Sequence record: OQ708376.1
Reading direction: 5' to 3' (one strand)
Source of the DNA: Escherichia phage vB_EcoM_CRJP21
Length of the DNA stretch: 64,000 bases
The translations under genes were made by a program, and so were the position numbers. This document shows, piece after piece, positions 338-42,625 of the stretch. The notes beneath the pieces are model-generated. The model did not search any database and was not told the origin of the DNA. It saw only the letters and a list, made by a program, of their open reading frames with translations. Positions within the stretch are counted from its first letter, which is position 1; every line of letters begins with the position of its first letter.

Positions 338-835
338 ATGGCATTAAGATCAAAAGACTTTCTCTTCAGAAGAAAAACAAAAGATGGTTCATGGCAAGAT
401 TTTCCTGAATCTGATAGCTGGTATCCAGCTAACTTGGATTATCACTGGAATGAACAAACGTTACCACTCGCAAGTGGTGGCTACTATGGCTGTACTACAG
501 GTTTACATACTATTTCATTTACACTACGTAATTTTATTGGTAGAATTTATGTATTAGCTACATTAGCTAGTAATCCTACTGATGATGATTGGTTTCCAAT
601 TAAATTCACTGAAAGTTGTAATTATTATCTTGAATTTACTGATATGGTTATTTTAAATCCAAATGGTGGGGATTTAATTAGACAACAAGGAACTACCGGA
701 ACATTTGCTGAAACAGTAACTGGTAATTTTACTTACCTTAAAGTTGGTATAGACCGTGATTATATTAGTAAGTATCCATCAGATGTCCAAAAAAGTTTAG
801 CTGGGAAGTTAGAACAAATTTTAATTAACTACTAA
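338..835 (+). CDS. Hypothetical protein (165 aa)
   Basis: Complete ORF, first of three tightly spaced plus-strand ORFs ending at a terminator; no recognisable motif. Confidence 0.5.
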   Translation: MALRSKDFLFRRKTKDGSWQDFPESDSWYPANLDYHWNEQTLPLASGGYYGCTTGLHTISFTLRNFIGRIYVLATLASNPTDDDWFPIKFTESCNYYLEFTDMVILNPNGGDLIRQQGTTGTFAETVTGNFTYLKVGIDRDYISKYPSDVQKSLAGKLEQILINY

Positions 836-1465: not shown

Positions 1466-2566
1466 ATGAGTGTTAATTATACAATTTATAGAAGTAATGG
1501 TAGTGTTTATGCTACCATTCCAAATAATGTTATTTTAGGACCAAACCAGCCCGGAAGTAACCCAGTTCCGTTAAATTTAGTTGGTAGAAATAAAGTAAGT
1601 TACGGTCAAGCGTGGAATGAAAACTTTTTACATTTAGTTGAAAATTTCAGTTCAGCATCTGCACCACGTGGCAACGTCAATGGTCAACTTTGGTATAGAA
1701 ACACTGGTAGTACTGGTGAGTTATTGATATCATTAGTTGATAATGCTAGACAACCTGCTGATATGGTAAGTGAAGCTGAATGGGCGTCTATCCCTATGAT
1801 TACTGTTTTTAACACAGTACCTGATGGTGAAAATAGTGTTATGGGTCGTATGGTATTAACTAGTAACGGTGATTCTCTTCGTGTGTTAATGAAAAACAAA
1901 GAATGGCGTGAAATTCAAACATCTAGACCAGAAAACAAAGAGTATTCATCATTATTAGATATTAACTATGATAATGGTAAAAAATATATAGAGTTCACAC
2001 AAAGTAATAGTACTAAACCGATTGCGTATTTTAACTTAGGTGGTACTTCACAAGTAGATACAAATAACTGGACAACATTAACTAATGGTACTGGTGTCTT
2101 TGAATTTGGTAGCAACTATTTCTATGAATTAAAAATTATGATTAGAGAAGTAAATGATTCTTCTGGTGAGATAGTTTCTCTTCCATACAATTCCAAAACC
2201 TTTTTTATAAAAGGGCAATTTTATGTAGATAATCAAGGAACTTTTGTTCCTGGTTCGGTGGGGGCAAGTCAAATGCCAGACCCACGTAGGATTACACAAT
2301 TAGAATCCATTAAAGATGTTATTACCAGTAGTCGCCCAAACTGGGACGTAAATATTGTTATTAATGGTGTAGATCCATCTATCCCAAATCCTAATGGAAC
2401 ATCTAAAGCTGATTATGAAAATTGGGTTATCAATTCTCTAAACTCAAATAAAAATTTAGGTTTTCGAGTTGATGGTAGTATTAGTAATCTAACTGCTGGT
2501 GAATCCGTTAAACTACAAGCATCCGTGTTGTTAAATATTACAGGTATTCCGATTATTGGAGTATAA
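1466..2566 (+). CDS. Hypothetical protein (366 aa), possibly structural/fibre-like
   Basis: ORF followed directly by a hairpin terminator; Asn/Gly/Ser/Thr-rich composition typical of phage fibre-like proteins. Confidence 0.5.
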   Translation: MSVNYTIYRSNGSVYATIPNNVILGPNQPGSNPVPLNLVGRNKVSYGQAWNENFLHLVENFSSASAPRGNVNGQLWYRNTGSTGELLISLVDNARQPADMVSEAEWASIPMITVFNTVPDGENSVMGRMVLTSNGDSLRVLMKNKEWREIQTSRPENKEYSSLLDINYDNGKKYIEFTQSNSTKPIAYFNLGGTSQVDTNNWTTLTNGTGVFEFGSNYFYELKIMIREVNDSSGEIVSLPYNSKTFFIKGQFYVDNQGTFVPGSVGASQMPDPRRITQLESIKDVITSSRPNWDVNIVINGVDPSIPNPNGTSKADYENWVINSLNSNKNLGFRVDGSISNLTAGESVKLQASVLLNITGIPIIGV

Positions 2567-2597
2567 AAAAAGGAGCCACACGGCTCCTTTTTGTTTT
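2565..2597. terminator. Bidirectional rho-independent terminator
   Basis: A-run, stem GGAGCC (2572-2577) / GGCTCC (2582-2587), then T-run; sits between convergent genes. Confidence 0.7.
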
Positions 2598-3060
2598 AAT
2601 ATCTATATGGTAAACTGTTGACAAACTGTGTACCTTCACGTATACTTTCCCATAGTGAGTAAAAATCTTTCATTAAGTTTGTGTTAAGTAAAGTATTTTT
2701 AGCACCAGGGTGTAATGGTTTAGGCCAAGAACCAATTCTAACCCAAGCATAACCAGAGCTTTCATGATTTAAAGTTGGTACAAATTCATTCTCAACTACA
2801 ATAACAAATGAATAATATTTAAATTTACCATTTTTTGTACAAAATACATCAAACGGTATAATATCAATAATGTTAGGTATTGAGTTGCCCAACTCTTCTT
2901 TAATTTCTCGCATCAGACCTTGTAGTGGTGTTTCGTTATGTTCAAGCTTTCCACCAACAAATGCCCAGTTGTTAGAATAGGTACTTCTTTCAGAACGCAA
3001 GTTTAACATCATATGTCCAGTACTTTTTGATAAAAATATAGCACCAACCGCTTCATTCAT
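2596..3060 (-). CDS. NUDIX hydrolase
   Basis: Exact Nudix box G-x5-E-x7-REIKEELG in GGKLEHNETPLQGLMREIKEELG. Confidence 0.85.
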   Translation of the reverse strand: MNEAVGAIFLSKSTGHMMLNLRSERSTYSNNWAFVGGKLEHNETPLQGLMREIKEELGNSIPNIIDIIPFDVFCTKNGKFKYYSFVIVVENEFVPTLNHESSGYAWVRIGSWPKPLHPGAKNTLLNTNLMKDFYSLWESIREGTQFVNSLPYRY

Positions 3061-3073
3061 AACAACACCTCCT

Positions 3074-4417
3074 TTATTTGTCAGTGAAAGTTATTTTCCA
3101 ATATCCCTGACGATACACAGGCATGATACTTTTATGCCATTTAAATTTGTCATTATATCTATAATAACCATTGTCTTCTTTATTATAAATGTAATTTCGT
3201 ACAGTAGATGGATCAATTAATTGTGCACCGTCATTTGTAATTTTAAACAAATAATTTGATGGGATTTCGGTTTCTTTATAAATGATGTTATGTATACTGT
3301 TATTTACATAATATTGTTCAGGTAATGCACTTGAAAGTACTGAATCTTTCTGCACAAACCCATGTATAGTGTAATCAACAGTATAATTGGTATTATCAAG
3401 CTGTACTATAATTTTGTTGGCATCTTCATTTTCACCATACGACGCTATATGACCTTTTAGTGGGTTGTCTTCTTCAATAGATTGTTGAAATTTAATCCCT
3501 ACTTTTTTGTCATCAAAATTTGGTTCTAGATATTTAAGATATTTTTCCCATGAATATATTCCACCGTTGGGAGAAACCGCAGATAGCGATTGGCTAACCA
3601 AGGTAAGTTGGTATGTATCAGGTAAATTATACTTGGAATTAGTAATTTCTTCAACTTTAATGCATAAATTCTTGGGTGTAAAAACATCTGTTATTATATC
3701 TGAATAATTTCCCATTTCAAAATCAAATTCGTCACGAGCACCTTTAATATTTGTAGTAATCTGTTGGATTAATTTTGGTTTTTCAACAATAGCTGGTAAA
3801 GAAAACCATATTGTCGTTTCAAATGTTAAAACCATTATATCCAAATCTGGGTCAGTTCCTTGTGGAAAACCACGAGTAGAAAACTGACAATCTATTAGTT
3901 CAACATCACTAAGCGATGTCCAATCTAACGGGTTATCAGATAATTGAAGTTGTATACTAGGTGCAAACAAAGTTGAGATTTGTTCGAATAATTCCATTTT
4001 AGTTTGAGTTTGAGTTACCCAAATATTCAAATCAAACGTAAAAGTCCAAGGTACTGGGTTATGTCTTACAATTTTGTATTGTGTGTCAAGATCTTTTGTG
4101 TACTCATTAATAGCAGGGGACTTGTTAGACCCCATTACTATAGTTTCGTTGGCATTAGAACGAATATTTTTACGATCCAACTTTAGTTGATTAACACTTA
4201 TGGTCATTATAGGTGCTGATGGGAGAACATTTTCACTATTCCCATTTATAATTGCTGCTGCCATTCTTGAAATATCGGCATAGCGACATGGAACCTTTTT
4301 GTATTTTGGGTTTCCATTAGCATCAATACCATTTTGTACTTGAAATTCACCAAAAACTCTGATAAGATGTTTCAGTACTCTGCGAAATTGACCGTCATAA
4401 TAATAATCTATTTTCAT
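3074..4417 (-). CDS. Hypothetical protein (447 aa), likely virion structural
   Basis: Long ORF whose start overlaps the stop of the upstream 501-aa ORF (4414-4417); no motif recognised. Confidence 0.5.
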   Translation of the reverse strand: MKIDYYYDGQFRRVLKHLIRVFGEFQVQNGIDANGNPKYKKVPCRYADISRMAAAIINGNSENVLPSAPIMTISVNQLKLDRKNIRSNANETIVMGSNKSPAINEYTKDLDTQYKIVRHNPVPWTFTFDLNIWVTQTQTKMELFEQISTLFAPSIQLQLSDNPLDWTSLSDVELIDCQFSTRGFPQGTDPDLDIMVLTFETTIWFSLPAIVEKPKLIQQITTNIKGARDEFDFEMGNYSDIITDVFTPKNLCIKVEEITNSKYNLPDTYQLTLVSQSLSAVSPNGGIYSWEKYLKYLEPNFDDKKVGIKFQQSIEEDNPLKGHIASYGENEDANKIIVQLDNTNYTVDYTIHGFVQKDSVLSSALPEQYYVNNSIHNIIYKETEIPSNYLFKITNDGAQLIDPSTVRNYIYNKEDNGYYRYNDKFKWHKSIMPVYRQGYWKITFTDK

Positions 4418-5919
4418 TCTGTGTCCTTATGTATGCGATAAACAGTATTAGGTTTAACTGCGTCATGTAATGGAACTTTGTTATCACTATTTACAAACTG
4501 TGTAAGTGCTAAGTCTGCACCTTCCCACGGTTTTCTTCCACCATAATCAAAAATAACCCATGAATTCTTAGTTGCATTGAATTCCCATAACGTAACTGGA
4601 GTATAATCGGTGCGATAGAAATAGTCACCATCTACTGCATCAGTTGGGAACATATTTCCTTCAGGGACTGTACCTCGTGCTGGTGGAATTTTAGGACGAT
4701 AATCTTGTTGCGAATCAATATTACCATATACACAATTGGACGTGAATGGTTCATTGACATAAGTTACCTTTGGTTCCCCCCACTTGTCATCATTATACTG
4801 ATAAATGTGTGGTTCTTTATAAAAAATACAAAAATCTTCCACATCTTCTGGTGGAACATCACTGGTAGTATATTCTACATCACAATTTAACCATTTTTTA
4901 GCACTTTTATCATATTGATACAACGTATAACCTGTCACATCTGCGTCATTTTCTTTAAAGAAGAAGTCACCATCCATTGGTTTTCTGGGAAAGATGGTTC
5001 CACGCTTGACTTCCACAGAAATCCATGTATCATTAACAAACTCTTTGAGTACTGGGTATGTTTTTTTCAAAAAATACATTCCATCGGCAGGTTCTTCTGG
5101 AAAATCATAACCGTTAAGCATATATTTTGATAAATCTACTGTATCAGGTCGATCATCATACAAATGTTCGTTTGTATAATGAATATAGGGTACTTCATCA
5201 TCAGCTTGCATGATGATACGGTTCATGATATCCATTTCATTGCCATAGTTACTGTTTTCCGACGAACCATCATCGGTATTTCCATTACCATTATTAGGGT
5301 CATCTGGATTATCAGGATAATTATTGTTACCGAGTAAATCGGAGTACTCAGGTGAGTCGGTTAGCGGTTTAACTCTAAGTTTATAAATGTGATGTTGCCA
5401 CGTAACCGAGTATCCCTCAGATGTACGAAATGCATCTTGGACGACATAGAAGCGGTTTAGACCTGTATCTTTACCCAATACATCAAAATCACGTAAATTT
5501 GGTAGTTCTATCACATCCCCTGGCATGATTTTTCTACCTAAACGCTGCATCATTGTATTATAATGGATTGTGATGTCCATAGTGTTGAAATTAAAGAACA
5601 ATCCTGGGATTTTCAAGTCTGGAGTTGCTTCTTGAACTTGATAGACACAACTAAGTGTGATAGCTTCAAGGTTGTAGTTTCTGTTTGGTGTGTCACCAAA
5701 AATTAAATCGCCAATACTTGACACAACTGATCCTGAAGATGTATAATCACCTCCATAGGATAAGTCAGTGTTGTCAGCAACTTGTTTTGGACCGACATAT
5801 GCATAAAGCCACATGTCAACTCCACCAATGTTGTATTGTTCAGCAATGGCAGAATCAATGAACTTGTAATCATTGGTTCTACCTTTTTTCCACATTCTAT
5901 ATGTCATGATTGTCTCCAA
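4414..5919 (-). CDS. Hypothetical protein (501 aa), likely virion structural
   Basis: Long ORF, first gene of a minus-strand operon ending with the NUDIX gene; no motif recognised. Confidence 0.5.
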   Translation of the reverse strand: METIMTYRMWKKGRTNDYKFIDSAIAEQYNIGGVDMWLYAYVGPKQVADNTDLSYGGDYTSSGSVVSSIGDLIFGDTPNRNYNLEAITLSCVYQVQEATPDLKIPGLFFNFNTMDITIHYNTMMQRLGRKIMPGDVIELPNLRDFDVLGKDTGLNRFYVVQDAFRTSEGYSVTWQHHIYKLRVKPLTDSPEYSDLLGNNNYPDNPDDPNNGNGNTDDGSSENSNYGNEMDIMNRIIMQADDEVPYIHYTNEHLYDDRPDTVDLSKYMLNGYDFPEEPADGMYFLKKTYPVLKEFVNDTWISVEVKRGTIFPRKPMDGDFFFKENDADVTGYTLYQYDKSAKKWLNCDVEYTTSDVPPEDVEDFCIFYKEPHIYQYNDDKWGEPKVTYVNEPFTSNCVYGNIDSQQDYRPKIPPARGTVPEGNMFPTDAVDGDYFYRTDYTPVTLWEFNATKNSWVIFDYGGRKPWEGADLALTQFVNSDNKVPLHDAVKPNTVYRIHKDTE

Positions 5920-5948
5920 AATAAATCGGGTATATCTTTATTTACCTT

Positions 5949-5977
5949 GTAGACAAACCGTAAGAATGTGATATAAT
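5949..5977 (+). promoter_or_regulatory. Promoter: GTAGAC -35-like box, 17-bp spacer, TGaTATAAT extended -10
   Basis: TATAAT at 5972-5977 with TG at 5969-5970; -35-like hexamer at 5949-5954; about 40 nt upstream of the ClpA-like start. Confidence 0.45.
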
Positions 5978-6017
5978 GTTTATTAATTAGAGTGACGTGA
6001 ATCACATAGGAGAATAC

Positions 6018-8306
6018 ATGAATCTTACTCAATTGTTCAAAAAAAGCGACGAACTGGCAACATCTCTAGGTCATACATTCTTGACTATTGACCACGTAAG
6101 TGCCACAGTACTGACTATTGATAGCATCAAGAACGTATTTGAAGATATGAACATTGATGCAGACAAACTGCACAACCGCCTAATGAACTATCTTAAAAAT
6201 ACAACAGTTCCACATGCACCAAAAAGTGTTAAAGATGAAGACGCGAATCGCACTTCACTTCTAGTGAATCGCGTTGTACATGAGCTTTCTAAAAAATCAG
6301 TTATTGAACAACTAAAAAGTGATGATTTTTCGATTGATGCATATTTTGTTCTATTCGAATGTCTGTCTTTCCCTAACACAGCACTAGAAGCTGCGTTAAA
6401 AGAAGAAGGTGTTAGCTGTACTGAAGCTGCACGTGCATTACAGAAACACGTTGAGTCACTTGATAAGGGTATCAACTTACAAAGTATTAATGACGAACCG
6501 ATTGGAGATAAAAAAGTGGCCCAACAGCAGCAATCATCTAAACAAAAAGGTTTGGAAGACTATACAACGAATCTAACTGCTCTTGCAAAAGAAGGCAAAC
6601 TAGATCCTATGATTGGTCGCCAGAAAGAATTGTCTGCATTGATTGAGACTCTTGCTCGCAAAACCAAAAAGAATGCTATTCTCACTGGTGAAGCTGGTGT
6701 AGGTAAAACACAAATCATCGACGGGCTTGCACAAGCTATTGCTGATGGTAACGTACCTGAACACCTAAAAGACGTTGAAATTCTTTCACTAAATGTTGGT
6801 GCATTGACTGCTGGTACTAAGTATCGTGGTGAATTTGAAGAACGCATCGACAATTTGCTAAAAGAACTAAAGAAACGTGAAAATACTATTGTTTTCATTG
6901 ATGAAATTCATATTATGGTTGGGGCTGGTTCCGCAAGTAATGGTTCTATGGACATGAGCAATATGCTTAAGCCAGCACTTTCACGTGGTGAGATTCGTGT
7001 AATTGGTGCAACAACATATGATGAATATCGTAAAAATATCGAGAAAGATAGTGCATTAACTCGTCGTTTTATGAAAATTGACGTAGTTGAGCCGACAATT
7101 GATGAAACTCGTGCAATTGTTAATGGTTTGAAACCAACGTATGAAAAATTCCATAATGTTGAGTTCACATCTGATGCAATGGATGCTGTAATTTCTCTCA
7201 GTGATAAATTCCTGAAGAATAAGCACTTCCCAGATAAAGCAATTGATCTAATGGATGCTGCTGCGGCTAAAGTTCGTTCACGTGACAACAATAGTAAGCT
7301 TATTACTTCCAATTTGATTCAAGAAGTTGTTGCTGGTATTGCCAATTTGGATATCAACGTGGTTGCATGTACTGAAAGTGATCGTATGCGTAATCTACCA
7401 GATGCACTACGCTCACGTGTATACGGTCAAGAGGAAGCTATTCAAAAATTAGTTGATAACGTGATGGTAGCTCGTGCAGGACTGCGTGACAAATCTAGTG
7501 TTCAGGGTGCATTTATGTTTGTTGGACCATCTGGTACTGGTAAAACAGAAATTACCAAAGCATTAGCAGACGCAACTGGTGCGGAACTCATTCGCTTTGA
7601 TATGTCAGAATTTTCTCAAGAACATACTGTTTCTAAACTAATTGGTTCACCTCCAGGTTATGTTGGTCATGATTCTGGTAACGGTTTACTGTTGGATAAA
7701 ATTGAGCAGTTCCCTAATGCAGTACTGTTACTTGATGAAATTGAAAAAGCAGATCGTAAAGTACTACTAACCTTCCTACAGGTTTTGGATGAAGGTCGTC
7801 TGACTGGTTCTCAAGGTAAAACTGTATATTTTAATAACGTAACTGTTATTATGACTACAAACCTTGGTGCGGCTGATTCAACAAAGCGTAGCATTGGTAT
7901 GAGCGGTAGTGACACTGCACAGGACAAGGCAATTAAAGCATTCTTGCCACCAGAGTTTATTAACCGTATTGATAGTATCGTTACGTTTAAAGACCTAAGC
8001 AGTGAAGCTATTGACAGCATCATTGATAAGTTCATGGGTGGTTTGAATGAACAAGTCAAAGACCGTAATGTTAAAGTTACATTGACAAAAGCTGCACGTG
8101 AATGGCTTGCGAAAAATGGGGTAAAAGTTGGTATGGGTGCACGTCCAATGAAACGTACCATTGAACAAAACATTCGTGTACCACTAGCTAAAGAAATGTT
8201 GTGTGGTTCACTTGTGAATGGTGGTAACATTACATTTGATGTTATTGATGGTAAAATCGGTATTAAGCCGAAACGTACCAAAGCTGTAGATAAAGCACTA
8301 GTATAA
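6018..8306 (+). CDS. ClpA/ClpC-type Hsp100 AAA+ ATPase (two nucleotide-binding domains, no ClpB middle domain)
   Basis: Walker A GEAGVGKT and GPSGTGKT, Walker B IVFIDEIH and LLLDEIEKA, Clp-N-like N-terminus, SIGM tripeptide at the position of the ClpA IGL ClpP-docking loop. ORF track start at 5997 is GTG; ATG at 6018 has an AGGAGA RBS. Confidence 0.85.
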
Positions 8307-8343: not shown

Positions 8344-11300
8344 TTACTTAACTAATAATATATTTTTAATATCATTACCACTAACTTGTAGACTATCAGT
8401 GTATACTGAAAGATCTATAGTGTAACTATTTTGTGTGTAACGTTTTAACATATCATAATTACCTAAATTAATTCCATTGAAAGAATATGTAGTATTAAGT
8501 TTAAAATCATGTTCTGCACTATACATTACACCACGGAGTAAATTATTTGCATTTCTAACTTCAACTTTTTCATATCCAATCGATATAATATCATTCATGT
8601 TTGCGGCTGAACCGGATAAAACATTATTTCTAATACTATAAGGACTTATTGATTTAGGTTGAGAAACATAGGTTGTATTTTCTTCACTAATGGTTGTGAT
8701 GTTAGTAACAGTACCACCAACAACACCGATATACATACCGTCAACCATTGGGAATCCATAAACCCATATCCCTTCATTATTTCTAAACGGTTGAATAACA
8801 CTTGAATCATATTCGATAACGTTGATTTCTAAACTATCAGTCATTTTAGTTCTTGCCAATTCACTAAGAACTCCCGCACCCGTAATTGGTAAGTTATAAC
8901 CGTTATCGATAGTAATTCCATCAACATCAAATATTTCATTAGAGATTATCCAAACGTCAACGTCATCTGGTGTTATTCCGTCATTGTACTTACCACCATT
9001 TAAAGTAGTATCGTAGAAAACATCATAATTAATTACATCAATGGTGTAATTTCTATTTTGTTCATACAATTTAATACCATTCTTGACAAATTCAGGGTCA
9101 GCAAATGTTCTAACACGAACAATGTTCAATGCTAGAGGCTGTACTGGCTCATTTTGTTGTGCAAGAGTGATGTTATCATAACGGAGAACTGCACCAGTAC
9201 TCTCATCAATCAATTCAATCGTTTCCTTACCTGTATTTCTTACAGTGAATAGGATCGGAGTTGTATTGTTTTTGATGTTAGATACACGCAAGATTGTTTC
9301 CCATGTGTGATTTTGATATCTCACAAAATCTTCACCATCAGGAGTGAAAATCATCACCTTATCACCATCAGATAGGTCATTGTCAACTATTTCTGCTTCA
9401 GTTAAGCTATTAATAGATCTCACACGATAGAAATATTTTTCATCAAACTTCGATGTTGTTTTATTAATATCATTTTCAATCTTAGCATATGAAGGAATAC
9501 TTACAATTGCTTCTGTATGTTTATATGGATTGATAATTGCCATACCTTCAGTTTGATATCTGCTGTTATCACGTAATTGTACAAGAGATACATTGTCAAA
9601 CCCATATCCATCAACTGTAAATCTAATTTGACCTACATCACGCCCAGAAGGGTTTATGTCAGATATATCCACAATATAAGGATCAACTTCATCATCTTTA
9701 ACTTCCCATTTTATTGAAGAAGTTTGAGATTCCAATGCTAGGTTATCAAATGCATTCATATCATTGAAGTACTTAGCTTCAGTAATACTATCAAGTATAT
9801 ATTGATAATCAGAATACATTGGATTATTTTGATCTAGTGGTAAATCATCAAGATTTATTTCAGCTAGTTCAACCATTTCACCATTTGTGATAAAATAATC
9901 TTCCATGAAATCATCAATACTTTGTTCATCAGGTATACTTTGATATACACCGTTAACATTTAAGTAAACATATTTTCGTGGAATCATTGTAATTGCATAG
10001 ATATCAATTGGGGTCTTACTAAGAATCTCTTCAGCTTTTTCGTACTTATCAGTAGCGTCTTTGTCGAATAACCCTCTCATACCTGCTAATACGTGAATAG
10101 CATCAGTATAGAAACGGGTATCACCACCTACTTCATCATAACGATAAACATATACACCATACTCAACTTCAAGTTTAACTTTTACTTCATAGTCTGATGC
10201 GTCAGGATTTTTATCTTTAATTAATGAAATGTATTTTTGATACAATTCACTGCTTATTTCAAAATATCCATAGTTATAATCATTACTAGAAGAAAAGCCT
10301 AATGGAAGTCTAGTACTAGGATTGTCATTATAAGTAAGTCCACTAAATCCACATCCAACTTCATCGTGAATTTTCTCATCACTTATATCTTTATAAAGTT
10401 TCAAACGGTTTGCCAATGTGTTATACTGAACATATTGTCTAAGGTCAGTAAACATATCGTTATGCGTTGATTCTTTATAAACACGTTCCAATGTAGCAGT
10501 GAATTCATCAGTTGCTTCTAAATCTTCCGCATGGTCTTTATACCACTGGTTAACGCCATATGCTGTTCCTAGTGTTACATCCAATTCTGGATAGTAGATT
10601 TGCATTTGATAAGCAATAAGAAGATCGAAAGTTTCTTCACTATATTCTGGGAAAGAATATATATAACGTTGTAATTCATAGTTACTAACAGCATCCTTTT
10701 CATTGGATTGATATTTGTTATTAACACTTACTAATTCATTTATGCTTGCCAAATCTTCATTTGGTTTACACTGAATATTATCATAATGCATAATAATATC
10801 AATTTCTTGGAATCTTCTATTTGGTGTAACGAAATCACTTGGTAGTGAACCTACCTGTTCCCATTTTTGGGTAATTTCATTAAATTGAGCGTACTCATAA
10901 TCCCAAATATCTTTTTCAGTTTTGATCCAAGAACCATCAACGAAAATATATCCATTAGGATCTAAATCATTACATAGACCTTTTATTAAATCATCATCAG
11001 ATGTCTTTTGCTCTATTTGTGAACGAATTTTAGTTCTATAAGGTTTAACTTCTTCAAAATATTCAACAATTTGATTAATCAAATTATCGTTTGAATAGTT
11101 TTGAACTAATGATTGTTCCAAACCAACAATATAGATATATGATGTTTTAAATACCCAATCCACAACACTTTGTTCAACATGTACATATTTGACCATATCA
11201 AAAACAATTTCGCTTTGATGTAAATCGAAAGAATTTTTGAGTAAAGCTAGTGCTTTACGAACGTTGATTTCACGATTGCTTAGTGAACCATTATCATTAT

Positions 11301-14300
11301 GAACACTATAATCTGCGTAAAGCATATCATTGAGTTCAACTGTACTGTTTTCACGACCAATCGCTTTCCAATAAATTGAATCGCGTGATTGTGATTTAAT
11401 ATACAATGTCCAAATGTTTTCACTATCGGTAACTCTGATAATATCGCCAACTTGGTAGTTTTTAGTATTAGCATCTTCTAAGCTTGACTCTTGAGTATAA
11501 GTCGTGTTACTATCATATCCAACATCATACCAATCAGCATATGACCAGTACTGAGTCATGTCTAATGAGGTTCCTAGTGATTCAACATAATCAGATTGTT
11601 TAATCATTTTATGTTGTCCCTCACCTTTGTTTTCTAACGTTATAGTAACAACACTACCCGCGTTTGCTGGACTATTCATTAACTGAATATATCCATTTTC
11701 GTCGAAGTGAATAAAATAAACAGCACTAGAAGTTAATGGATTTGGTAGATATCCACTAGTACTTAAAATAACAGCGTCATTTTCTTTAAATTTATCACTT
11801 TCAACTGCAATAACTAATTCATTATTGTAAGACAACACACGGAAAGAAACTTCATTAGGGTTAACTTCAGTGGTTTTAACATTAAACACATCTTCCATAA
11901 CAACACTATTAGTGGTTATGTTTTGTGACCTATAATAATTATTAGCACTTTCTACAAAGTTTCTACGAGCTTCTATAACATTTTGGAACCAAGTTTTGTT
12001 TGATCCTAAACCGTTATCAACATCTGGATATAATAAATTAATCACAGAACCTGATTCAGTTGTTTCTTGACCAATTAGTGAGTTCCACATTGAATCCCAA
12101 ATTAGTGGGTTAAAGTTATAGCTGTCACCTTCTTTACATAGTTGATACTGGTCATGTTTAACAACTTCAGTACTATCCATGTAATAAGAAACAGTTAAAA
12201 TACTGGTATCATCATTCACTTTAAATTGCATATTACTAAGAATAAACGAGTTTTCATTTATTGGAGCGAACCAAGGAATGTTTAGCTGTGTTGGATCTTT
12301 AATAATACGAGCAATGTCAGTACATGATTTCGTTCTGGTATGTAGTGGTGGTACATAAATTGTATCACGTACCCAGAAATAGTATTTTGTTACATAACTA
12401 TCAGTTGAACTATCATATTCCAAAAATGTACTATAATTATCTTCAAGTGCAGTTCCACTTGGTAGATACATAGTATTATTTTTGTTTTTCTTAGCAACAT
12501 CTTTACAGTATTTGTCCCAGTTATATGGCTCAACTGGTGAACAAACCCACTCTAACACATCAATGGTACTATGTGGTAACAAACGGCCCCAGTTGTAACG
12601 TTTGTATTCATTGGTTGCATCAATATCAACATTACCGTCTGCGTCATAAATTGCACGAGTATAATCCAAATAAAATGCAGTGCTAGTGTTCCACCATACT
12701 TGACCAACTTTATCAGCACCCCAAGCCTGGATTAACTCTCCATTACTATTATACTGTGCAGGATCAACTGGTGAAGTATATGTTACGTTTTGCATAGCCG
12801 CACCTGGAATAACACCATTAATTGGGTCATAAACGTTTAGATATAGCTCAGTAATGTTAGTACGTTCATCATATGTCGTTGGACGATCAAATAAAGTACT
12901 TTGTGGTGCTTTAAAACTATATTTCTTGTCAATGTAAGCTTGACGATCATCAGTACTGGCAAAACGTGATACATAACGATACAAACGTGGACGTGTATCT
13001 GGATCAGTAAATTCAATATCAATAGAAGTGTCAAATGGAACTACCATAACTTTAGGATCAGAACCAGCAGTATAATATTGACTTTCTACTGTTAAAGTAT
13101 CTGGCATAAAGTTAGTTTCATCAACAAAATAATAATAATCACCATCTTCAAGTGGTACATTATCAGTTAAAGTTACTTTACAAAATTGTTCAGCATACAC
13201 ATCGGTATTTTCAATAGGTGTTATAGAAACCATTTGTACATTAGTATCAACCAATTCAAAAATGTTCCACAAACCATTACCGTCTTTAAACATCCACACA
13301 GATTCAGGATTTTCACCTTTACCATTAGTATAAGTTATGCGGTCATTATATGCAGTACTGAAATCTTTTGTTGTGTACGATACTTCATCCAATGTTACTG
13401 GACCAATATCTGGAAGTTGGATGTTTTCACTTCTTCCACTACGCATTGGGAATGAGAACTTACCATTTGGACGTGTAATCCAACGAGGATCTTTACCTTG
13501 CTCACCGAAGTATACAATATGATTACCATTACCATTTGAAGTTGCATTTACATCAAAAGAAACCATTTGAGGTTGTTGTTTAAATTGGTCATTGATTAGT
13601 TTAAATTGAAGGTTTTTCTTACCATCAATATTACCATATGTACCAATTTTAAATGCCCATTCTTGTAATGCTTTATATTCATCAGTGTCATATGATTTAG
13701 AAACACGAAGTACACGTTCTAAAACTTGGTTAGTACCTTTATCGTGAATGAATCCTTTATAGAAATCAACACGACTAACATCACTACTAATCATACGCTG
13801 TAGATAATCACGAGATTGATAACCAATCAAATGGTTTGACAACTCTTGTAATTGTACATCACTTACTGGAGTTTCACTATCATAATAATGTTGGAAATCC
13901 GACACTAATTTTTCAAATGATGGTAGTGTTCCAGCTTCCAAGATAATAAATCCAGGAGCTTGTAGGCGACCAGTCCATGAACCAGTAATATATCCATACA
14001 TTTTAATTAGTTCTTGAATAGAACCATATGTTGGCTGATAAATGTAATCACCAAAAATAGTTTTATCATCAAAAATAACAGCATGTTCATATGAACACAA
14101 ACTTAAACGAATCAATGCAATGCGTTTATTAGATTCTAAAGTTCTAACAGTGAAGATATTTCCAATACGAGAAGTTTCAATTTCATATTGGCGAATACCT
14201 TGGTTATTATCATCAAGTAATGACCATACACCACCATTATTTTGCGTAATAGATTGTACTGAACCAAAGTCTGCCCCAAATTTAGCGTTTGCAGCACTTG

Positions 14301-17300
14301 GGGTACAAGAAATAAATTCACCAGTTACTAGAGAATTCTGACTCCAGATCACGAAATCTTTAGCAATAGTGTTCCAATCTTGTTGAGCACCACTATCATT
14401 TACATCTTCAAAAATCCAACCATGTTCTTTAAGATATTCACCATATCCACAAATAAAAGTATAAACTTCTTGGTAACTATTGAAAACTTTACCATATTCA
14501 ATTGAAGCTTCAGACTTCCATTCATTATAATGAACAACATTACGGTTTTCCAATTTAAGAGTTACTTTTCTACCATTTTTTACTGGAAGTTTATATTTAA
14601 ATTTAGCACCAACTAGATCATATCCATCAATCTGATATGCACTACCATTCCAAGTAATTTTGATCGCACTCATTTGCTCATCACGGATATTATTAGAACG
14701 AACAAGACCAATGGTTTGGTTTTCTTGTGAAATAAGACCGAAAGATTTAGCATTGAATGTTAGCTGATCTGCTTTAGTAAATCCTCCAATTTTATGACCA
14801 ACATTTATATAAGAAGAACGAACTACATCCCCATACTTGGTGGTAATATTTTTATTTTGATACATCAAATGGTCACTTACAAACATTTGATAACCAATTG
14901 TTCTTGTGCTATTTTCACCATGAACTACTGTATTTTTATCAAAATTAATACGCTTACGTGTATCACCATAAAGGAATTGTGAACCATCAGTGAATACTTC
15001 TTTTAAGTTATCGTTGCGGGTATCCCAGAAATAGTTAGCAAATTGTGCTGGTTTAGCTTTATACAAAAGCATCATTTGGTCATATGCAAACAATGTAGTG
15101 TTCATGTATGTAAATTCCATGTCACCCATATCACCATATGTCCAAGGTTCTGCTCTATGATTTAAAGATCCAGACACTAAACCTAAAATTTCAGGTGCAA
15201 TATATTCAACCACACAAATATCAATACCAGAAGATGTTTTATTTCCAGTTTTTGTAATTTTGAATGGCTGTACACCAAATCTTTTATATTTGTCATATTG
15301 ACCACGACGATCACCAAATAAAATAGTTCCAGTACTGCTATCTCCAATAGTTCCGTCAATATCCCAAAGACCACTAGGAACTAAATCACCTTGCTCATTC
15401 ATAACAAGTGCTTCATATACATATACAACATCACTATCACGTTCACCAACTTGAACAGCCGTTGGTTCGTATTCTTGGTTCCACCAAGTTGGACGTTGTG
15501 TAAAGCCAAACATTTCCCACGGATGGGTAGCTGGGCGATATGTACCATATTGGTCAGTGTAAATGGCACGCCATGAACCACGTGCAGGAATTTCAGTACT
15601 TTGACCATTAACTACATAATAAGTGCCAGTATAGTTCCAAGTTCTCCAATTGTTAGGATCATAATCATGTGTACTATTACTGATACCATTAGTTGCGGTG
15701 AAGTTAATGTATCCACGTAGTAATAATGTTTGTTTCTCTTCAGCACTATATTCAGTTTTAGTGAAATATGGTGTAGGGAAAAGGTCATCACTATTCAATA
15801 CTGGTACGTAATCAACATCTTTGAATTTATTATCAATACTATTAAAAATTCTATTTTCTAATTCATATACAACATCATCCATTTTATCAACACCATTGAT
15901 AACACGGTATGCTTTGGAAATAATACCAGTATGACTGATGTTATAACAGCTTGGTTTACTACCAGCAGTGAGGAATGTCGCTTTTTCTGGTACATATGCT
16001 TGAAGAATACCTAAGAACTGTGGTGTTGGTGGTATAAATGCACGAATGAATCCAGAAGTACTTCCAACATTATCATAATAGAATGGGAATGAACTATCAC
16101 GTCCCATATTAATAGTAGTTAAAATTGCATCAACAATGTTTGCAGCACTATTTTGTAAAAAGTCTGATGGATTTTCATCATACATACGAAGCATTTGTGT
16201 ATTAAATTTATTAATGAATCTAAAATATTCAGATTGCATAAACATAGTTGCTTCAAACAAATCAATATCTTCATTTGCAGTATGTGCCATCAATGGAAGC
16301 ATAGATGCTTCATTTTGGATAATTTTAGTACCTACGCCATTATTAACCAATCCTTTAGCCAAACGTTCTTCATAGTCATTGAAATCATCAGAAGAACCAC
16401 GTGTAATGTTCTTTTGAATAATATCCTGAAAATGTAAAGTGTAGTCACCTTGGTTAATGTATATAATATTAGAATTATATGGGTTATTTTGTAGGTTGAT
16501 TGGAACTTCATATGCACCTAATTCTTTATTAGGAGTTACAGTACTGCTATAAGTTCTAATTTGAATAACAGAATCTTCATCCAATTCTACAGTACTATCT
16601 AGAGTGATGCTTTGTACTTGACCTTTTGAAACATTTTTGGTATATTTGGACACATCAACACCATCAACCACAACTTCAATAATATCAGAATCATTATCTA
16701 AAACTTTTTGTGCCAATTCGAATGTATGGTCATATTTTACAATCTGAACACCATCACCAGTAATTGGATGCCAATCTAGATAAGTTTCACGGTCAGCTTT
16801 ATAGTACTGATATGTTCTATCAACTTCAATAACATATGCATACATACCATCAACTGGTTCTTTAAAAACTTCCATATCATAAACAGTACTGAATACACGA
16901 TACATATCAGTACGTTGGACTTGTGGAGTTTGTTTTACAAATTGTTTAGAGTACTCTTCTGAACGAACCCAATCGGTTTGAAGATTCATTTCATTATTTT
17001 CATCAATAATGTTATAATAGTATAAACCATCAATTTCAACTTCTTTTCCAAGATGGTCATAGGTATAACGTTGGGATTGTAAAAAGTTTTCATAAATGTA
17101 ATAATTATAATCACCAAGTTCAATGTTATATCCATATACACTATCAGTTGCATAGTTGTAATTTATTTTAAAACCAAACAACTCTGAACCTTTAAAGTTA
17201 CTTGATGGATATGTAGTACTGTTGTCAAGTTTGATACCATTACGATCATAAAGTTGGAATTTAGGGAATACGTTAACACTAGTTTTTGATTGTGCACGAA

Positions 17301-18345
17301 CCCACAAAGATCCATTCCAGTACATAGAACTATTACCATACTCATTACCTTTAGTGATTAGAACAACATCACCATCTTGAGGTTCACCACTTGGGCGTGA
17401 TTCGGTTTCTTCTTCTGGATCTAGTGCTAAACCATAAACACGAGTACCATCTTGCATTTTTTTCACATATACATTATAAATTCTATTGTTTTCACCATTG
17501 TTACCAATACTGGTGAATAGAATACGCATTCCATCTTGCGGAATAATACCATCAATACGTATACCACTATTAATATCTTTTTGAACGATATCTTCAGGTT
17601 TAATAATATCAGAGAACAGATCAACAGTTCCACGGAATTTTGTACCGTAGTTAATTAGCTCAATATTTTTATTATATTCAATAATTGGTGCACGTGCACG
17701 AATAAAACGTGAATCTTGCATTAATTCTTCAGTTAATATTGAGCCATCTTCTAATGTTTCACCTAAAGTATACCAAAAGTTTTGTAGTGACCATGTATTA
17801 CCATTAAGTGCTCCACGTTCCATTACAATGTAATCAGGTGAAGTAATATTATAAGAGTTTTTAGTATCCCAAAGATATGAGCTAAAATTGTTCATTTTAT
17901 TTGGGTTAATAGCTGGAGTCCATGCATAAAACTTACCGTTGAACAAACGGCTTTCATTATCGGTTAGTGCTCCATAATGATTCATGTATCCAACTAGATC
18001 ATCATAAAATTGAATTGAACGAATTGTCGAATCATCATTTTTTGAGACGTAAGCAGTGGACAACTGATAAAGTTGACGTGCTACAGTACTTTCATGTAAG
18101 AAGATATTACCAGCAGCGGCAGGAGAACCCATATCACCAATATAGCCGTCAACTAATTCGTTTTCAGCCGGATTAAACCATTGTTGAATAACATCATCAC
18201 TGACTTTTTGAATATCTTCTAAGCCTTGCATCCACTCAGGCAATCTTTTAATAAAAAGCTTCTTCTGTACTGCTTCAGCCATCTGTGTAGGTTGAAACTT
18301 AAAATTATTAGTCATTTTTGGACTCCATATAATTCGTTCATTCAT
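8344..18345 (-). CDS. Giant virion structural protein (3333 aa), probably baseplate or tail-fibre associated
   Basis: Single uninterrupted 10-kb ORF immediately downstream of the gp6-like gene (the position of gp7 and later wedge/fibre genes in T4); Asn/Tyr/Gly/Thr-rich fibre-like composition. Confidence 0.65.
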   Translation of the reverse strand: MNERIIWSPKMTNNFKFQPTQMAEAVQKKLFIKRLPEWMQGLEDIQKVSDDVIQQWFNPAENELVDGYIGDMGSPAAAGNIFLHESTVARQLYQLSTAYVSKNDDSTIRSIQFYDDLVGYMNHYGALTDNESRLFNGKFYAWTPAINPNKMNNFSSYLWDTKNSYNITSPDYIVMERGALNGNTWSLQNFWYTLGETLEDGSILTEELMQDSRFIRARAPIIEYNKNIELINYGTKFRGTVDLFSDIIKPEDIVQKDINSGIRIDGIIPQDGMRILFTSIGNNGENNRIYNVYVKKMQDGTRVYGLALDPEEETESRPSGEPQDGDVVLITKGNEYGNSSMYWNGSLWVRAQSKTSVNVFPKFQLYDRNGIKLDNSTTYPSSNFKGSELFGFKINYNYATDSVYGYNIELGDYNYYIYENFLQSQRYTYDHLGKEVEIDGLYYYNIIDENNEMNLQTDWVRSEEYSKQFVKQTPQVQRTDMYRVFSTVYDMEVFKEPVDGMYAYVIEVDRTYQYYKADRETYLDWHPITGDGVQIVKYDHTFELAQKVLDNDSDIIEVVVDGVDVSKYTKNVSKGQVQSITLDSTVELDEDSVIQIRTYSSTVTPNKELGAYEVPINLQNNPYNSNIIYINQGDYTLHFQDIIQKNITRGSSDDFNDYEERLAKGLVNNGVGTKIIQNEASMLPLMAHTANEDIDLFEATMFMQSEYFRFINKFNTQMLRMYDENPSDFLQNSAANIVDAILTTINMGRDSSFPFYYDNVGSTSGFIRAFIPPTPQFLGILQAYVPEKATFLTAGSKPSCYNISHTGIISKAYRVINGVDKMDDVVYELENRIFNSIDNKFKDVDYVPVLNSDDLFPTPYFTKTEYSAEEKQTLLLRGYINFTATNGISNSTHDYDPNNWRTWNYTGTYYVVNGQSTEIPARGSWRAIYTDQYGTYRPATHPWEMFGFTQRPTWWNQEYEPTAVQVGERDSDVVYVYEALVMNEQGDLVPSGLWDIDGTIGDSSTGTILFGDRRGQYDKYKRFGVQPFKITKTGNKTSSGIDICVVEYIAPEILGLVSGSLNHRAEPWTYGDMGDMEFTYMNTTLFAYDQMMLLYKAKPAQFANYFWDTRNDNLKEVFTDGSQFLYGDTRKRINFDKNTVVHGENSTRTIGYQMFVSDHLMYQNKNITTKYGDVVRSSYINVGHKIGGFTKADQLTFNAKSFGLISQENQTIGLVRSNNIRDEQMSAIKITWNGSAYQIDGYDLVGAKFKYKLPVKNGRKVTLKLENRNVVHYNEWKSEASIEYGKVFNSYQEVYTFICGYGEYLKEHGWIFEDVNDSGAQQDWNTIAKDFVIWSQNSLVTGEFISCTPSAANAKFGADFGSVQSITQNNGGVWSLLDDNNQGIRQYEIETSRIGNIFTVRTLESNKRIALIRLSLCSYEHAVIFDDKTIFGDYIYQPTYGSIQELIKMYGYITGSWTGRLQAPGFIILEAGTLPSFEKLVSDFQHYYDSETPVSDVQLQELSNHLIGYQSRDYLQRMISSDVSRVDFYKGFIHDKGTNQVLERVLRVSKSYDTDEYKALQEWAFKIGTYGNIDGKKNLQFKLINDQFKQQPQMVSFDVNATSNGNGNHIVYFGEQGKDPRWITRPNGKFSFPMRSGRSENIQLPDIGPVTLDEVSYTTKDFSTAYNDRITYTNGKGENPESVWMFKDGNGLWNIFELVDTNVQMVSITPIENTDVYAEQFCKVTLTDNVPLEDGDYYYFVDETNFMPDTLTVESQYYTAGSDPKVMVVPFDTSIDIEFTDPDTRPRLYRYVSRFASTDDRQAYIDKKYSFKAPQSTLFDRPTTYDERTNITELYLNVYDPINGVIPGAAMQNVTYTSPVDPAQYNSNGELIQAWGADKVGQVWWNTSTAFYLDYTRAIYDADGNVDIDATNEYKRYNWGRLLPHSTIDVLEWVCSPVEPYNWDKYCKDVAKKNKNNTMYLPSGTALEDNYSTFLEYDSSTDSYVTKYYFWVRDTIYVPPLHTRTKSCTDIARIIKDPTQLNIPWFAPINENSFILSNMQFKVNDDTSILTVSYYMDSTEVVKHDQYQLCKEGDSYNFNPLIWDSMWNSLIGQETTESGSVINLLYPDVDNGLGSNKTWFQNVIEARRNFVESANNYYRSQNITTNSVVMEDVFNVKTTEVNPNEVSFRVLSYNNELVIAVESDKFKENDAVILSTSGYLPNPLTSSAVYFIHFDENGYIQLMNSPANAGSVVTITLENKGEGQHKMIKQSDYVESLGTSLDMTQYWSYADWYDVGYDSNTTYTQESSLEDANTKNYQVGDIIRVTDSENIWTLYIKSQSRDSIYWKAIGRENSTVELNDMLYADYSVHNDNGSLSNREINVRKALALLKNSFDLHQSEIVFDMVKYVHVEQSVVDWVFKTSYIYIVGLEQSLVQNYSNDNLINQIVEYFEEVKPYRTKIRSQIEQKTSDDDLIKGLCNDLDPNGYIFVDGSWIKTEKDIWDYEYAQFNEITQKWEQVGSLPSDFVTPNRRFQEIDIIMHYDNIQCKPNEDLASINELVSVNNKYQSNEKDAVSNYELQRYIYSFPEYSEETFDLLIAYQMQIYYPELDVTLGTAYGVNQWYKDHAEDLEATDEFTATLERVYKESTHNDMFTDLRQYVQYNTLANRLKLYKDISDEKIHDEVGCGFSGLTYNDNPSTRLPLGFSSSNDYNYGYFEISSELYQKYISLIKDKNPDASDYEVKVKLEVEYGVYVYRYDEVGGDTRFYTDAIHVLAGMRGLFDKDATDKYEKAEEILSKTPIDIYAITMIPRKYVYLNVNGVYQSIPDEQSIDDFMEDYFITNGEMVELAEINLDDLPLDQNNPMYSDYQYILDSITEAKYFNDMNAFDNLALESQTSSIKWEVKDDEVDPYIVDISDINPSGRDVGQIRFTVDGYGFDNVSLVQLRDNSRYQTEGMAIINPYKHTEAIVSIPSYAKIENDINKTTSKFDEKYFYRVRSINSLTEAEIVDNDLSDGDKVMIFTPDGEDFVRYQNHTWETILRVSNIKNNTTPILFTVRNTGKETIELIDESTGAVLRYDNITLAQQNEPVQPLALNIVRVRTFADPEFVKNGIKLYEQNRNYTIDVINYDVFYDTTLNGGKYNDGITPDDVDVWIISNEIFDVDGITIDNGYNLPITGAGVLSELARTKMTDSLEINVIEYDSSVIQPFRNNEGIWVYGFPMVDGMYIGVVGGTVTNITTISEENTTYVSQPKSISPYSIRNNVLSGSAANMNDIISIGYEKVEVRNANNLLRGVMYSAEHDFKLNTTYSFNGINLGNYDMLKRYTQNSYTIDLSVYTDSLQVSGNDIKNILLVK

Positions 18346-22857: not shown

Positions 22858-22893
22858 AAAGATATCCTCGTTTTATTTATAGTACTAAAATAT

Positions 22894-29008: not shown

Positions 29009-29848
29009 ATGACAAATAGACCAAAGCGTAAAAAGTATCTCAATAATGCTGATTTACTTCGTGAAATACAAAAAAGTAAAATTTCATATTGCTGGTTATT
29101 AGACAAATCATATAGTATGTATGATTATATTGTTTTTCATGAGTCAGAAATTACTGCTGAGTTACTAGAAAAAGCTAAGGCAGCACGAATTAAACGACTG
29201 AACAATGAAATGCTTGATAGTATTCGTGAAAAGGAAAATATGAGTGCTAAAAAAGCTAAAGAATATGCAGATGAACACAATTTAGTTATCACTGACGTTC
29301 CAATTGATGAAGTTGTTATTCGTGTTATTACAGATGAACATATTCCACCAGATACTAGAGTTAACTTTGAACCATTCAAGCATTATATTGTAGATAATGA
29401 AGGTATTCTCTATGAAGTTTGTCGTTCTCACTGGAAAGGCGACCTTGAAACTGGTGAATTCAGTACTGTTCATGGTAAAATTACAAATGAACTAGGGAAG
29501 ATGTTCATTAAACTTGCTGAGGAAATCTCTCATAAATCTAATTACAGAAACTATACATACTTAGATGAAATGATGGGTGATGCAAGAATACAATTAGTTA
29601 AAAACGCACTTCTCTTTAAAGAGAGCATTCTTTATAAAAAAGATAAACCAGCAGTTCAGCTAAATCCTTTCTCTTACTATACATCATTCGTAAACAATAG
29701 TTTTCGTTCTATATTGAATAGTGAGAAAAATGTTCGAAATATACGTGATGATTTACTTGAAATGCATGGCTTTACGCCATCACATACACGTCAAATTGAA
29801 ATTGAATTGAACATGATTGAAAGGAAAAATGAAGATGGCTCTGTTTGA
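29009..29848 (+). CDS. Late-transcription sigma factor, gp55-like (with extra internal segment)
   Basis: N-terminus (KKYLNNADLLREI) and C-terminal block (F..YT...DEMMGD..., NPFSYYTSFVNNSF) align by eye with T4 gp55; sits just upstream of gp47 as in T4; 279 aa against 185 aa in T4. Confidence 0.55.
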   Translation: MTNRPKRKKYLNNADLLREIQKSKISYCWLLDKSYSMYDYIVFHESEITAELLEKAKAARIKRLNNEMLDSIREKENMSAKKAKEYADEHNLVITDVPIDEVVIRVITDEHIPPDTRVNFEPFKHYIVDNEGILYEVCRSHWKGDLETGEFSTVHGKITNELGKMFIKLAEEISHKSNYRNYTYLDEMMGDARIQLVKNALLFKESILYKKDKPAVQLNPFSYYTSFVNNSFRSILNSEKNVRNIRDDLLEMHGFTPSHTRQIEIELNMIERKNEDGSV

Positions 29849-33562: not shown

Positions 33563-33570
33563 TATTTATA
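33563..33570 (-). promoter_or_regulatory. T4-type late promoter motif TATAAATA (minus strand)
   Basis: Plus-strand TATTTATA at 33563-33570, about 30 nt upstream of the endo VII-like start codon. Confidence 0.4.
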
Positions 33571-35416: not shown

Positions 35417-35546
35417 TTTATTAAATCTCCATGTAATAAATGTGTTTTAGTATTTATAAGACTAAAAAAGATTAAATTAAACTAATTTTTATATTCTCTA
35501 TAGTTTCATAAATATTTCTATAATACATCTATTAAAAGGGAATGTT

Positions 35547-41408: not shown

Positions 41409-41416
41409 TATAAATA
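41409..41416 (+). promoter_or_regulatory. T4-type late promoter motif TATAAATA
   Basis: Exact TATAAATA about 45 nt upstream of the scaffold gene start. Confidence 0.45.
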
Positions 41417-42617: not shown

Positions 42618-42625
42618 TATAAATA
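42618..42625 (+). promoter_or_regulatory. T4-type late promoter motif TATAAATA
   Basis: Exact TATAAATA about 45 nt upstream of the major capsid gene; followed by a leader shared with the acidic-protein gene. Confidence 0.5.

Follow-up and report, generated by a model that had tools for sequence, protein, structure and literature searches.

A Nudix hydrolase gene behind the neck genes of Escherichia phage vB_EcoM_CRJP21 and its probable late expression

Escherichia phage vB_EcoM_CRJP21 carries, in a stretch of 64,000 nucleotides (nt) of its genome (sequence record OQ708376.1; the whole stretch is referred to below as the window), three co-directional open reading frames (ORFs) on the minus strand between positions 2596 and 5919, the last of which encodes a hydrolase of the Nudix superfamily. 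Why is such an enzyme encoded directly behind two large genes, when would it be made, and would it act from the virion or in the infected cell? The explanation that we favour, with moderate confidence, is that the Nudix gene is carried on a late transcript of the neck genes and that its product works as a soluble enzyme of the late infected cell on a small nucleotide substrate. According to this explanation, a single late transcript would start from a gp55-type promoter (GTAAATA) in a 111-bp divergent intergenic region, pass through a gp14-like gene, a gp15-like gene and the Nudix gene, and end at 2567-2592, where a bidirectional terminator lies. On this neck mRNA, a strong ribosome-binding site of its own would serve the translation of the Nudix protein, which would be a catalytically competent soluble enzyme, not a virion component. 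It would hydrolyse a small nucleotide, most likely a nucleoside triphosphate (NTP), a deoxynucleoside triphosphate (dNTP)-type compound or another substituted nucleoside diphosphate (NDP-X), like the enzymes of the MutT/NudI/NudG group.

Layout of the gene cluster and identity of the neck genes

Over bases 2000-6500, the window matches Escherichia phage vB_EcoM_G17 (MK327931) and phage Sharanji without a difference (100% identity) and is 99.6-99.8% identical to 121Q, PBECO4, phAPEC6, UB, JP4 and other Asteriusvirus jumbo myoviruses; by its sequence, the source phage is an Asteriusvirus jumbo myovirus of the 121Q/PBECO4 group. The same three genes are annotated in the GenBank records of G17, 121Q and phAPEC6, in the last of these as gp247, gp248 ('proximal tail protein') and gp249 ('MutT/NUDIX hydrolase family protein'). 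The Nudix gene of the window is the same gene as 121Q gp578, its PBECO4 counterpart, phAPEC6 gp249, G17 G17_00345 and RaK2 mutT, and the G17, 121Q and PBECO4 copies have 100% protein identity, the same neighbours and the same orientation. With the gene annotated in dozens of genomes, the locus itself is already known; what is added here is a probable gp14-like fold for gene 1, the promoter footprint, a quantification of the synteny and a collation of the negative virion proteomics.

Gene 1 occupies positions 4414..5907 of the minus strand and encodes a protein of 497 aa. Read from an upstream TTG, the frame extends to 5919 (4414..5919, 501 aa); the ATG at 5907, which is annotated alike in G17, 121Q and phAPEC6, is the better-supported start, and a Shine-Dalgarno sequence read from the letters, GGAG (5914..5917, minus strand), stands 6 nt ahead of it. 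Gene 2 (3074..4417, minus strand, 447 aa) overlaps gene 1 by 4 nt (ATGA). Its stop codon TAA (3076-3074) abuts the Shine-Dalgarno sequence of the Nudix gene, AGGAGG (3068..3073, minus strand), located 7 nt before the Nudix ATG, and the Nudix gene (gene 3; 2596..3060, minus strand, 154 aa) starts 13 nt after the gene 2 stop. RNA folding of the gene 2/Nudix junction gave no terminator and no stable hairpin (z = 0.12). Directly 3' of the Nudix stop codon lies a bidirectional intrinsic terminator (2567..2592, both strands; an 11-bp stem between an A-run and a T-run), which is common to the Nudix gene and the convergent gene at 1466..2566 and is also annotated as a terminator in G17. Its minus-strand RNA forms a GC-rich 11-bp hairpin followed by U7 (-16.2 kcal/mol, z = -4.98). 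Because of the 4-nt overlap, the 13-nt spacer, the lack of a hairpin at the junction and the terminator after the Nudix stop, the packing of the three genes is operon-like, in agreement with the first-pass annotation, which had described a three-gene minus-strand operon with the Nudix gene as its last member.

Gene 1 matched the PHROG family phrog_11591, a 'virion structural protein' (E = 5.6e-272), and gave no match in Pfam or PDB sequence searches. An AlphaFold2 model built with 47 homologues was of medium quality (mean predicted local distance difference test score, pLDDT, of 67.7), with block means mostly of 79-88 where the modelling of the first ~190 residues was better and of 83-95 at residues 261-380. 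When this model was used in a Foldseek search, ranks 1, 2, 4 and 5 were taken by chains 9mkb_0, 9lu7_M, 9lu6_M and 9lu5_M, the identity of which as T4 gp14 was confirmed; the E values ranged from 1.7e-5 to 6.5e-4 and the template modelling (TM) scores relative to the target from 0.44 to 0.59, values that come from a query model of medium quality. Lower matches included the P1 connector, the phage 812 stopper, the phage Chi neck and the SPP1 connector complex. Judged by these best matches, the first ~190 residues of gene 1 would fold like T4 gp14, a head-closure or 'stopper' protein; a linker rich in N, D and G and a beta-rich C-terminal region come after them. Sequence-level proof of gene 1 as gp14 or gp13 was sought by hhalign and rejected, as the matches were not significant (gp14 was co-linear, with E = 0.09). 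The N/D/G-rich linker, a low-complexity segment, covers residues ~194-222 (NNNYPDNPDDPNNGNGNTDDGSSENSNYGNE). Beyond the linker, gene 1 has a DG-x-[YF]-F motif at three sites (EPADGMYF, KPMDGDFF and AVDGDYF), of which the final one is the most conserved among the 47 homologues.

The assignment of gene 2 was made from sequence: it matched the Pfam family PF16724 (T4-gp15_tss) with E = 2.3e-20 and 73.3 bits (cutoff 25), residues 5-237 aligning to model positions 1-218 of 245, as well as phrog_11196 (E = 4e-227). The product is a T4 gp15-like tail terminator (tail sheath stabiliser/completion protein), with a C-terminal extension of ~210 aa beyond the gp15-like part. Genes 14 and 15 of T4 are adjacent, in the same order and on the same strand, as are genes 1 and 2 here. 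Given the gp14 fold match, the gp15 Pfam match and this shared adjacency, genes 1 and 2 probably correspond to T4 genes 14 and 15, the module for head-to-tail joining (the neck). Both proteins are much longer than those of T4 (497 aa versus 256 aa for gp14, and 447 aa versus 272 aa for gp15). Downstream of gene 15, T4 has its terminase genes (16 and 17), whereas the window has the Nudix gene in this place.

Late transcription of the gene cluster

The late-promoter consensus of the window was taken as ATAAATA/TATAAATA. Upstream of gene 1, in the 111 bp that separate the neck operon from its divergent neighbour, there is a T4-type late-promoter core, GTAAATA (5939..5945, minus strand), located 32 nt upstream of the gene 1 ATG; the sequence at this site, GGTAAATA, ends 32 nt before the ATG and agrees with the T4 TATAAATA at 6 of 8 positions. 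The position of TAAATA upstream of gene 1 is kept in five isolate lineages despite diverged intergenic DNA, its distance to the gene start being 31 nt in RaK2, 32 nt in CBB, 34 nt in Vibrio phage 2.275.O and 20 nt in PA5oct. Among distinct relatives from IMG/VR, 43 of 54 carried TAAATA 10-60 nt upstream of gene 1, against ~3% expected by chance.

The use of this motif elsewhere in the window was also examined. ATAAATA occurs in 21 copies, 19-20 of them in intergenic DNA, which makes up 7.4% of the window (binomial p ~5e-20), and all seven exact copies of TATAAATA lie upstream of genes and point toward them. The genes behind these sites include those for the baseplate lysozyme, the baseplate hub, head proteins and endonuclease VII, and in the related phages CBB and GAP32 a late-promoter role has been proposed for the same motif (PMC5259590). 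Most ATAAATA/TATAAATA sites stand 6-59 nt ahead of a correctly oriented gene start (e.g. 22874-22881, 33563-33570 and 35451-35458 on the minus strand, 41409-41416 and 42618-42625 on the plus strand) and mark the likely late promoters of the window.

A sigma factor that could use such promoters is encoded in the window. The gene at 29009..29848 (plus strand) encodes a gp55-like late sigma factor, with matches to phrog_12791 (E = 3.4e-154) and phrog_234 (E = 8.4e-18). The protein has 279 aa, compared with ~185 aa for T4 gp55, and its match to the T4-type family is confined to residues 125-262. Both elements by which a T4-type late transcription unit can be recognized, a TATAAATA-like -10 element upstream and a gene for a gp55-type sigma factor, thus appear to be present. 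Because a conserved late-promoter core precedes the unit and a gp55-like sigma factor is encoded in the window, late co-expression is the best reading of the locus, as the first-pass annotation had suggested, and late co-transcription of gene 1, gene 2 and the Nudix gene appears well supported by sequence.

An independent promoter of the Nudix gene with early expression, along with absence of the protein from virions, had been named in the first-pass annotation as what would speak against its reading; sequence comparison revealed no conserved internal promoter. Two sigma70-type candidates inside gene 2, at 3720-3693 (11/12 positions) and 3654-3626 (10/12), were considered and rejected: neither is conserved, as RaK2, CBB, the Vibrio phage and PA5oct have no equivalents of them, and sigma70-like matches in the region show no excess (46 versus 38.5 +/- 7.1 in shuffled sequences). 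A candidate internal late promoter, GTAAATA at 3301, 241 nt upstream of the Nudix ATG, was rejected as well, since its position is not conserved; across the five lineages TAAATA lies 241, 273, 94 and 352 nt upstream of the Nudix gene in four and is missing in one.

One environmental lineage (loci L016 and L017) differs in that five or six small opposite-strand genes lie between the gp15-like and the Nudix genes, and a separate GATAAATA stands 23 nt ahead of the Nudix ATG. All four TAAATA copies in this 10-kb locus are intergenic, three of them 21-39 nt upstream of a gene. Taken together, these results make late expression look like a property of this Nudix family, which in the window would be reached via co-transcription with the neck genes.

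Virion proteomes of related phages

Nudix proteins of late or morphogenetic myovirus clusters were proposed by Iyer, Burroughs and colleagues to be packaged and injected (PMC9503650), so packaging as such is a published idea. It can be compared with the virion proteomes that are available for three relatives. In phAPEC6, the region of which is 99.8% identical in DNA to the window, the 62 virion proteins included gp245, gp248, gp250c, gp251c and gp253, and gp249 (Nudix) was not among them. In CBB, CBB_233 and CBB_234 were identified with 12 peptides each and CBB_232 (Nudix) was not detected. In PA5oct, the 93 virion proteins, some as small as 8-15 kDa, included EST35_0162 and EST35_0163 and did not include EST35_0161 (Nudix). 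The JP4 proteome identified only 18 bands. Homologues of gene 1 (CBB_234 and PA5oct EST35_0163) and of gene 2 (phAPEC6 gp248, CBB_233 and PA5oct EST35_0162) are thus found in virions by mass spectrometry, which, together with the gp14-like and gp15-like assignments, bears out the structural character that the first-pass annotation had ascribed to the two upstream genes.

The same annotation had also proposed that the Nudix protein is possibly associated with the virion and could act on host nucleotide or alarmone pools at entry, targets that are speculative. Since the proteomes of three relatives contain one or both operon partners of the Nudix protein without the protein itself, its packaging is not supported, and neither is action at entry; such shotgun virion proteomes can miss low-copy proteins and are not sensitive to single copies. 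A low-copy enzyme of the virion or the neck, delivered at entry, would therefore be able to escape them, and the Nudix gene does stand beside neck genes in every relative examined. Moreover, the PHROG 'portal protein' family phrog_15528 includes a Nudix segment, and fusions of Nudix domains to portal, MuF and head protease proteins are on record (PMC9503650). However, the protein is absent from all three proteomes, including the 93-protein set of PA5oct, and a 17-kDa enzyme of average sequence present at neck stoichiometry should give detectable peptides. We also considered a gp15-Nudix fusion made by read-through or frameshift and rejected it: the spacers of 13, 12, 9 and 11 nt in four lineages keep no consistent frame, and no peptides of CBB_232 were found. 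We regard delivery with the virion as very improbable, the available proteomics arguing against it; the Nudix gene is an annotated gene and not a demonstrated injected effector.

Several points weigh against a late neck transcript encoding a soluble enzyme. The GTAAATA core before gene 1 has one mismatch to the ATAAATA core and matches the T4 TATAAATA at no more than the six positions mentioned above. The proteomes are incomplete also for the neck proteins, as the gene 1 product was undetected in phAPEC6 and the gp15 homologue in RaK2. Finally, a literature search found no Asteriusvirus transcriptome. For PA5oct, the RNA sequencing paper has no values for single genes and describes several structural regions as weakly transcribed.

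The Nudix enzyme and its probable substrate class

The Nudix protein is a single-domain member of its superfamily, with matches to PF00293 (E = 2.6e-15, 57 bits, cutoff 21.1) and to phrog_1198 'MutT/NUDIX hydrolase' (E = 4.6e-45). Its Nudix box, G-KLEHN-E-TPLQGLM-REIKEELGN (residues 37-59; 2884..2952, minus strand, from the translation), is complete and follows the superfamily pattern GX5EX7REUXEEXGU as G37-x5-E43-x7-R51-E52-I-K-E55-E56-L-G58-N. An alignment of 42 homologues shows no variation at G36, G37, E43, R51, E52, E55 and E56, and a C-terminal motif conserved in it, ESSGYAW...WPKPLHPGAK, is the family's own. The structural model (pLDDT 90.9) has the canonical single-domain alpha/beta/alpha Nudix fold, with NudI as the best fold match. 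The nearest relatives by sequence and fold are MutT, NudI, NudG and NUDT18, with RppH close behind, and the PDB sequence matches are flat, led by Bdellovibrio RppH (3ees, E = 4e-7) and followed by MutT, NudI, Dcp2 and NudG.

No model that defines a single enzyme reached its cutoff. The MutT equivalogs TIGR00586 and NF008044 scored 35.2 versus 97.9 and 36.8 versus 148 bits, with an alignment that spans the box region alone (residues 4-63); NudI NF012016 scored 31.8 bits versus a cutoff of 95, and RppH NF001936 and related models 27.9 bits versus 118. In a large protein database, a wide gap lies between the phage family (E <= 6.5e-26, at least 41% identity) and the matches that follow it, cellular proteins of 131-133 aa named 8-oxo-dGTP diphosphatase in their source. 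The family is mostly acidic, with a median isoelectric point (pI) of 5.5, which would fit a small-molecule enzyme better than an RNA-binding one. From the MutT/NudI/NudG relatives, the homologues named 8-oxo-dGTP diphosphatase and the acidic pI, we favour, as the probable class, a MutT/NudI/NudG-like hydrolase that acts on small molecules of the NTP or NDP-X type. Orthology with NudI, MutT or NudG, or a shared substrate, cannot be claimed: those enzymes of Escherichia coli and Salmonella are likewise small single-domain NTP/dNTP pyrophosphohydrolases, but the window protein scores 3 to 5 times below their NCBIfam cutoffs, and the C-terminal motif sets the phage family apart from them.

In an alternative reading, the Nudix protein would act late on RNA 5' ends, removing pyrophosphate or a triphosphate (ppp-), nicotinamide adenine dinucleotide (NAD) or dinucleoside tetraphosphate (Np4N) cap and so tuning mRNA decay like RppH, NudC or T4 NudE.1. 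The best PDB sequence match is an RNA pyrophosphohydrolase, namely 3ees; Dcp2 aligns over residues 25-137, the RppH NCBIfam models are matched weakly, and two family members come near or above the Pfam Nudt16-like decapping model (26.8 and 30.1 bits, cutoff 27). In addition, T4 NudE.1 decaps NAD-RNA in vitro, and its inactive mutant delays lysis (bioRxiv 10.1101/2024.04.04.588121). On the other hand, the RppH equivalog score stays far below its cutoff, the window protein itself falls below the Nudt16-like model, and the relation to T4 NudE appears to lie at the superfamily level only. RNA-binding Nudix enzymes in general have basic surfaces, whereas this family is mostly acidic. We consider this role unlikely, though it is the chief competitor of the favoured one.

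T4 NudE (NudE.1) is the only stand-alone phage Nudix enzyme with biochemistry that we found; beyond it, only the NAD-salvage NadM type is known to have been studied. Like the window protein, NudE is a stand-alone protein of ~150 aa encoded beside genes of late function; it is an accessory, non-essential enzyme. Its neighbour is the lysozyme gene e, whereas the Nudix gene of the window neighbours neck genes. Its substrates are adenosine diphosphate ribose (ADP-ribose), diadenosine triphosphate (Ap3A), flavin adenine dinucleotide, NAD and NAD-RNA (bioRxiv 10.1101/2024.04.04.588121). The two proteins align by hhalign with 94% probability (E = 1.4e-7) over 93 columns centred on the box, and no T4-like phage appeared in the organism tally or the listed rows of 108 tblastn matches with E <= 1e-3. 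By these comparisons, the similarity appears to be at the superfamily level only.

We also considered a role in counter-defence, in which the Nudix protein would degrade ADP-ribose, NAD-derived or other nucleotide immune signals, or alarmones such as guanosine tetra- and pentaphosphate ((p)ppGpp), made when the host senses late structural proteins. Late timing would match the arrival of such structural-protein triggers, and the gene is kept across a very large clade. Yet ADP-ribose pyrophosphatases are marked by a Pro 15-16 residues downstream of the Nudix box, whereas here the box ends at N59 and positions 74 and 75 hold C and T, P69 being the closest Pro. Furthermore, no Macro, NADAR, sirtuin or NAD-salvage gene is linked to the Nudix gene at the locus, and the distant homologues in RSL1 and BcepSauron sit amid genes of nucleotide metabolism. 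No tie of the family to a known defence system turned up, the PADLOC defence library not having been searched. A counter-defence role, which ranks third, seems to us rather improbable, and hydrolysis of a small nucleotide in the late infected cell remains the preferred explanation. Phage Nudix enzymes may modulate nucleotide pools, RNA caps and immunity based on NAD or ADP-ribose, and this clean and widespread family, with its fixed genomic position and probably late expression, is a reasonable target for a substrate screen.

Linkage of the Nudix and neck genes across relatives, and neighbouring genes

RaK2, CBB, Vibrio phage 2.275.O and PA5oct all share the order gene 1, gene 2, Nudix, and among them the identity of the Nudix protein falls to 54%. 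Members of the family occur in every RaK2-like and PA5oct-like jumbo phage examined, and at least 571 IMG/VR stretches encode them. The linkage was quantified in 80 IMG/VR loci with family members at 42-70% identity, 77 of which had enough upstream DNA. A gp15-like homologue was found upstream, on the same strand, in all 77 informative loci, preceded by a gene 1 homologue in all but three. The Nudix start lay between -8 and +59 nt from the gp15-like stop in 63 loci, and a gap of ~350-630 nt separated the two genes in the remaining 14. This wide gap held a same-strand ORF of 65-214 aa in each of the 13 loci examined; in one of them (L040), an opposite-strand ORF of 190 aa is the longer candidate. 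Three of the genes inserted between the gp15-like and Nudix genes in metagenomic relatives gave no Pfam match.

Other arrangements were also seen. At locus L013 (1775-3685) the insert is a gene of 636 aa with DUF7487 and a below-cutoff match to REase_MTES_1575, possibly a mobile nuclease, and at L016 (2834-4903) the junction has been invaded by the block of small opposite-strand genes described above. In PA5oct (L005, ~4872-5420) the annotated Nudix start, at locus position 5103, looks too far downstream: the Nudix homology begins at ~5001, and the open frame reaches back over the end of the gp15-like gene. Farther away, the Nudix homologues of RSL1 and BcepSauron, already mentioned, are more distant ones. 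In the outgroup Salicola phage SCTP-2 the closest homologue, gene 265, lies elsewhere, beside the terminase gene, and the gp15-like gene 240 is directly followed by two other Nudix-domain genes, 241 and 242 (23.9 and 52 bits against PF00293; L099, 4870-5289 and 5289-5816); the box of gene 241 has Y and K in place of the expected E and R. XacN1 has no Nudix gene after its gp15 homologue.

What may interest specialists most is how firmly the Nudix gene stays attached to the gene for the tail terminator throughout a very large clade that is mostly uncultivated. This near-absolute linkage may mean that head-tail joining is functionally coupled with Nudix activity, an idea that we hold to be quite speculative and improbable; the enzyme might then be a sub-stoichiometric component of the neck lumen that is ejected first, or a destroyer of nucleotide immune signals triggered by late structural proteins.

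The surroundings of the operon are also structural in part. Just beyond the ClpA-like gene described below lies an ORF of 3333 aa (8344..18345, minus strand), the phAPEC6 counterpart of which, gp245 (381.9 kDa), was identified in virions with 17 peptides and is a giant structural protein. On the other side, positions 338..835 (plus strand) encode a protein of 165 aa that is annotated as 'structural protein' in 121Q and G17. In its place, phAPEC6 (L003, 1385-1558) has a 57-aa ORF in another frame, corresponding to 384..557 of the window; this is probably an annotation error, and it may be the reason why the 165-aa protein is missing from the phAPEC6 proteome table.

The gene that diverges from the neck operon encodes a ClpA/ClpB-like double AAA+ ATPase (6019..8306, plus strand; domains Clp_N, AAA, AAA_lid_9, AAA_2 and ClpB_D2-small). 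It stands amid the structural region, and both the gene and its position are kept in RaK2, CBB and the Vibrio phage. A promoter-like site precedes it at 5950-5977 (plus strand), consisting of TAGACA and TATAAT separated by 16 nt, with an extended -10 TG.

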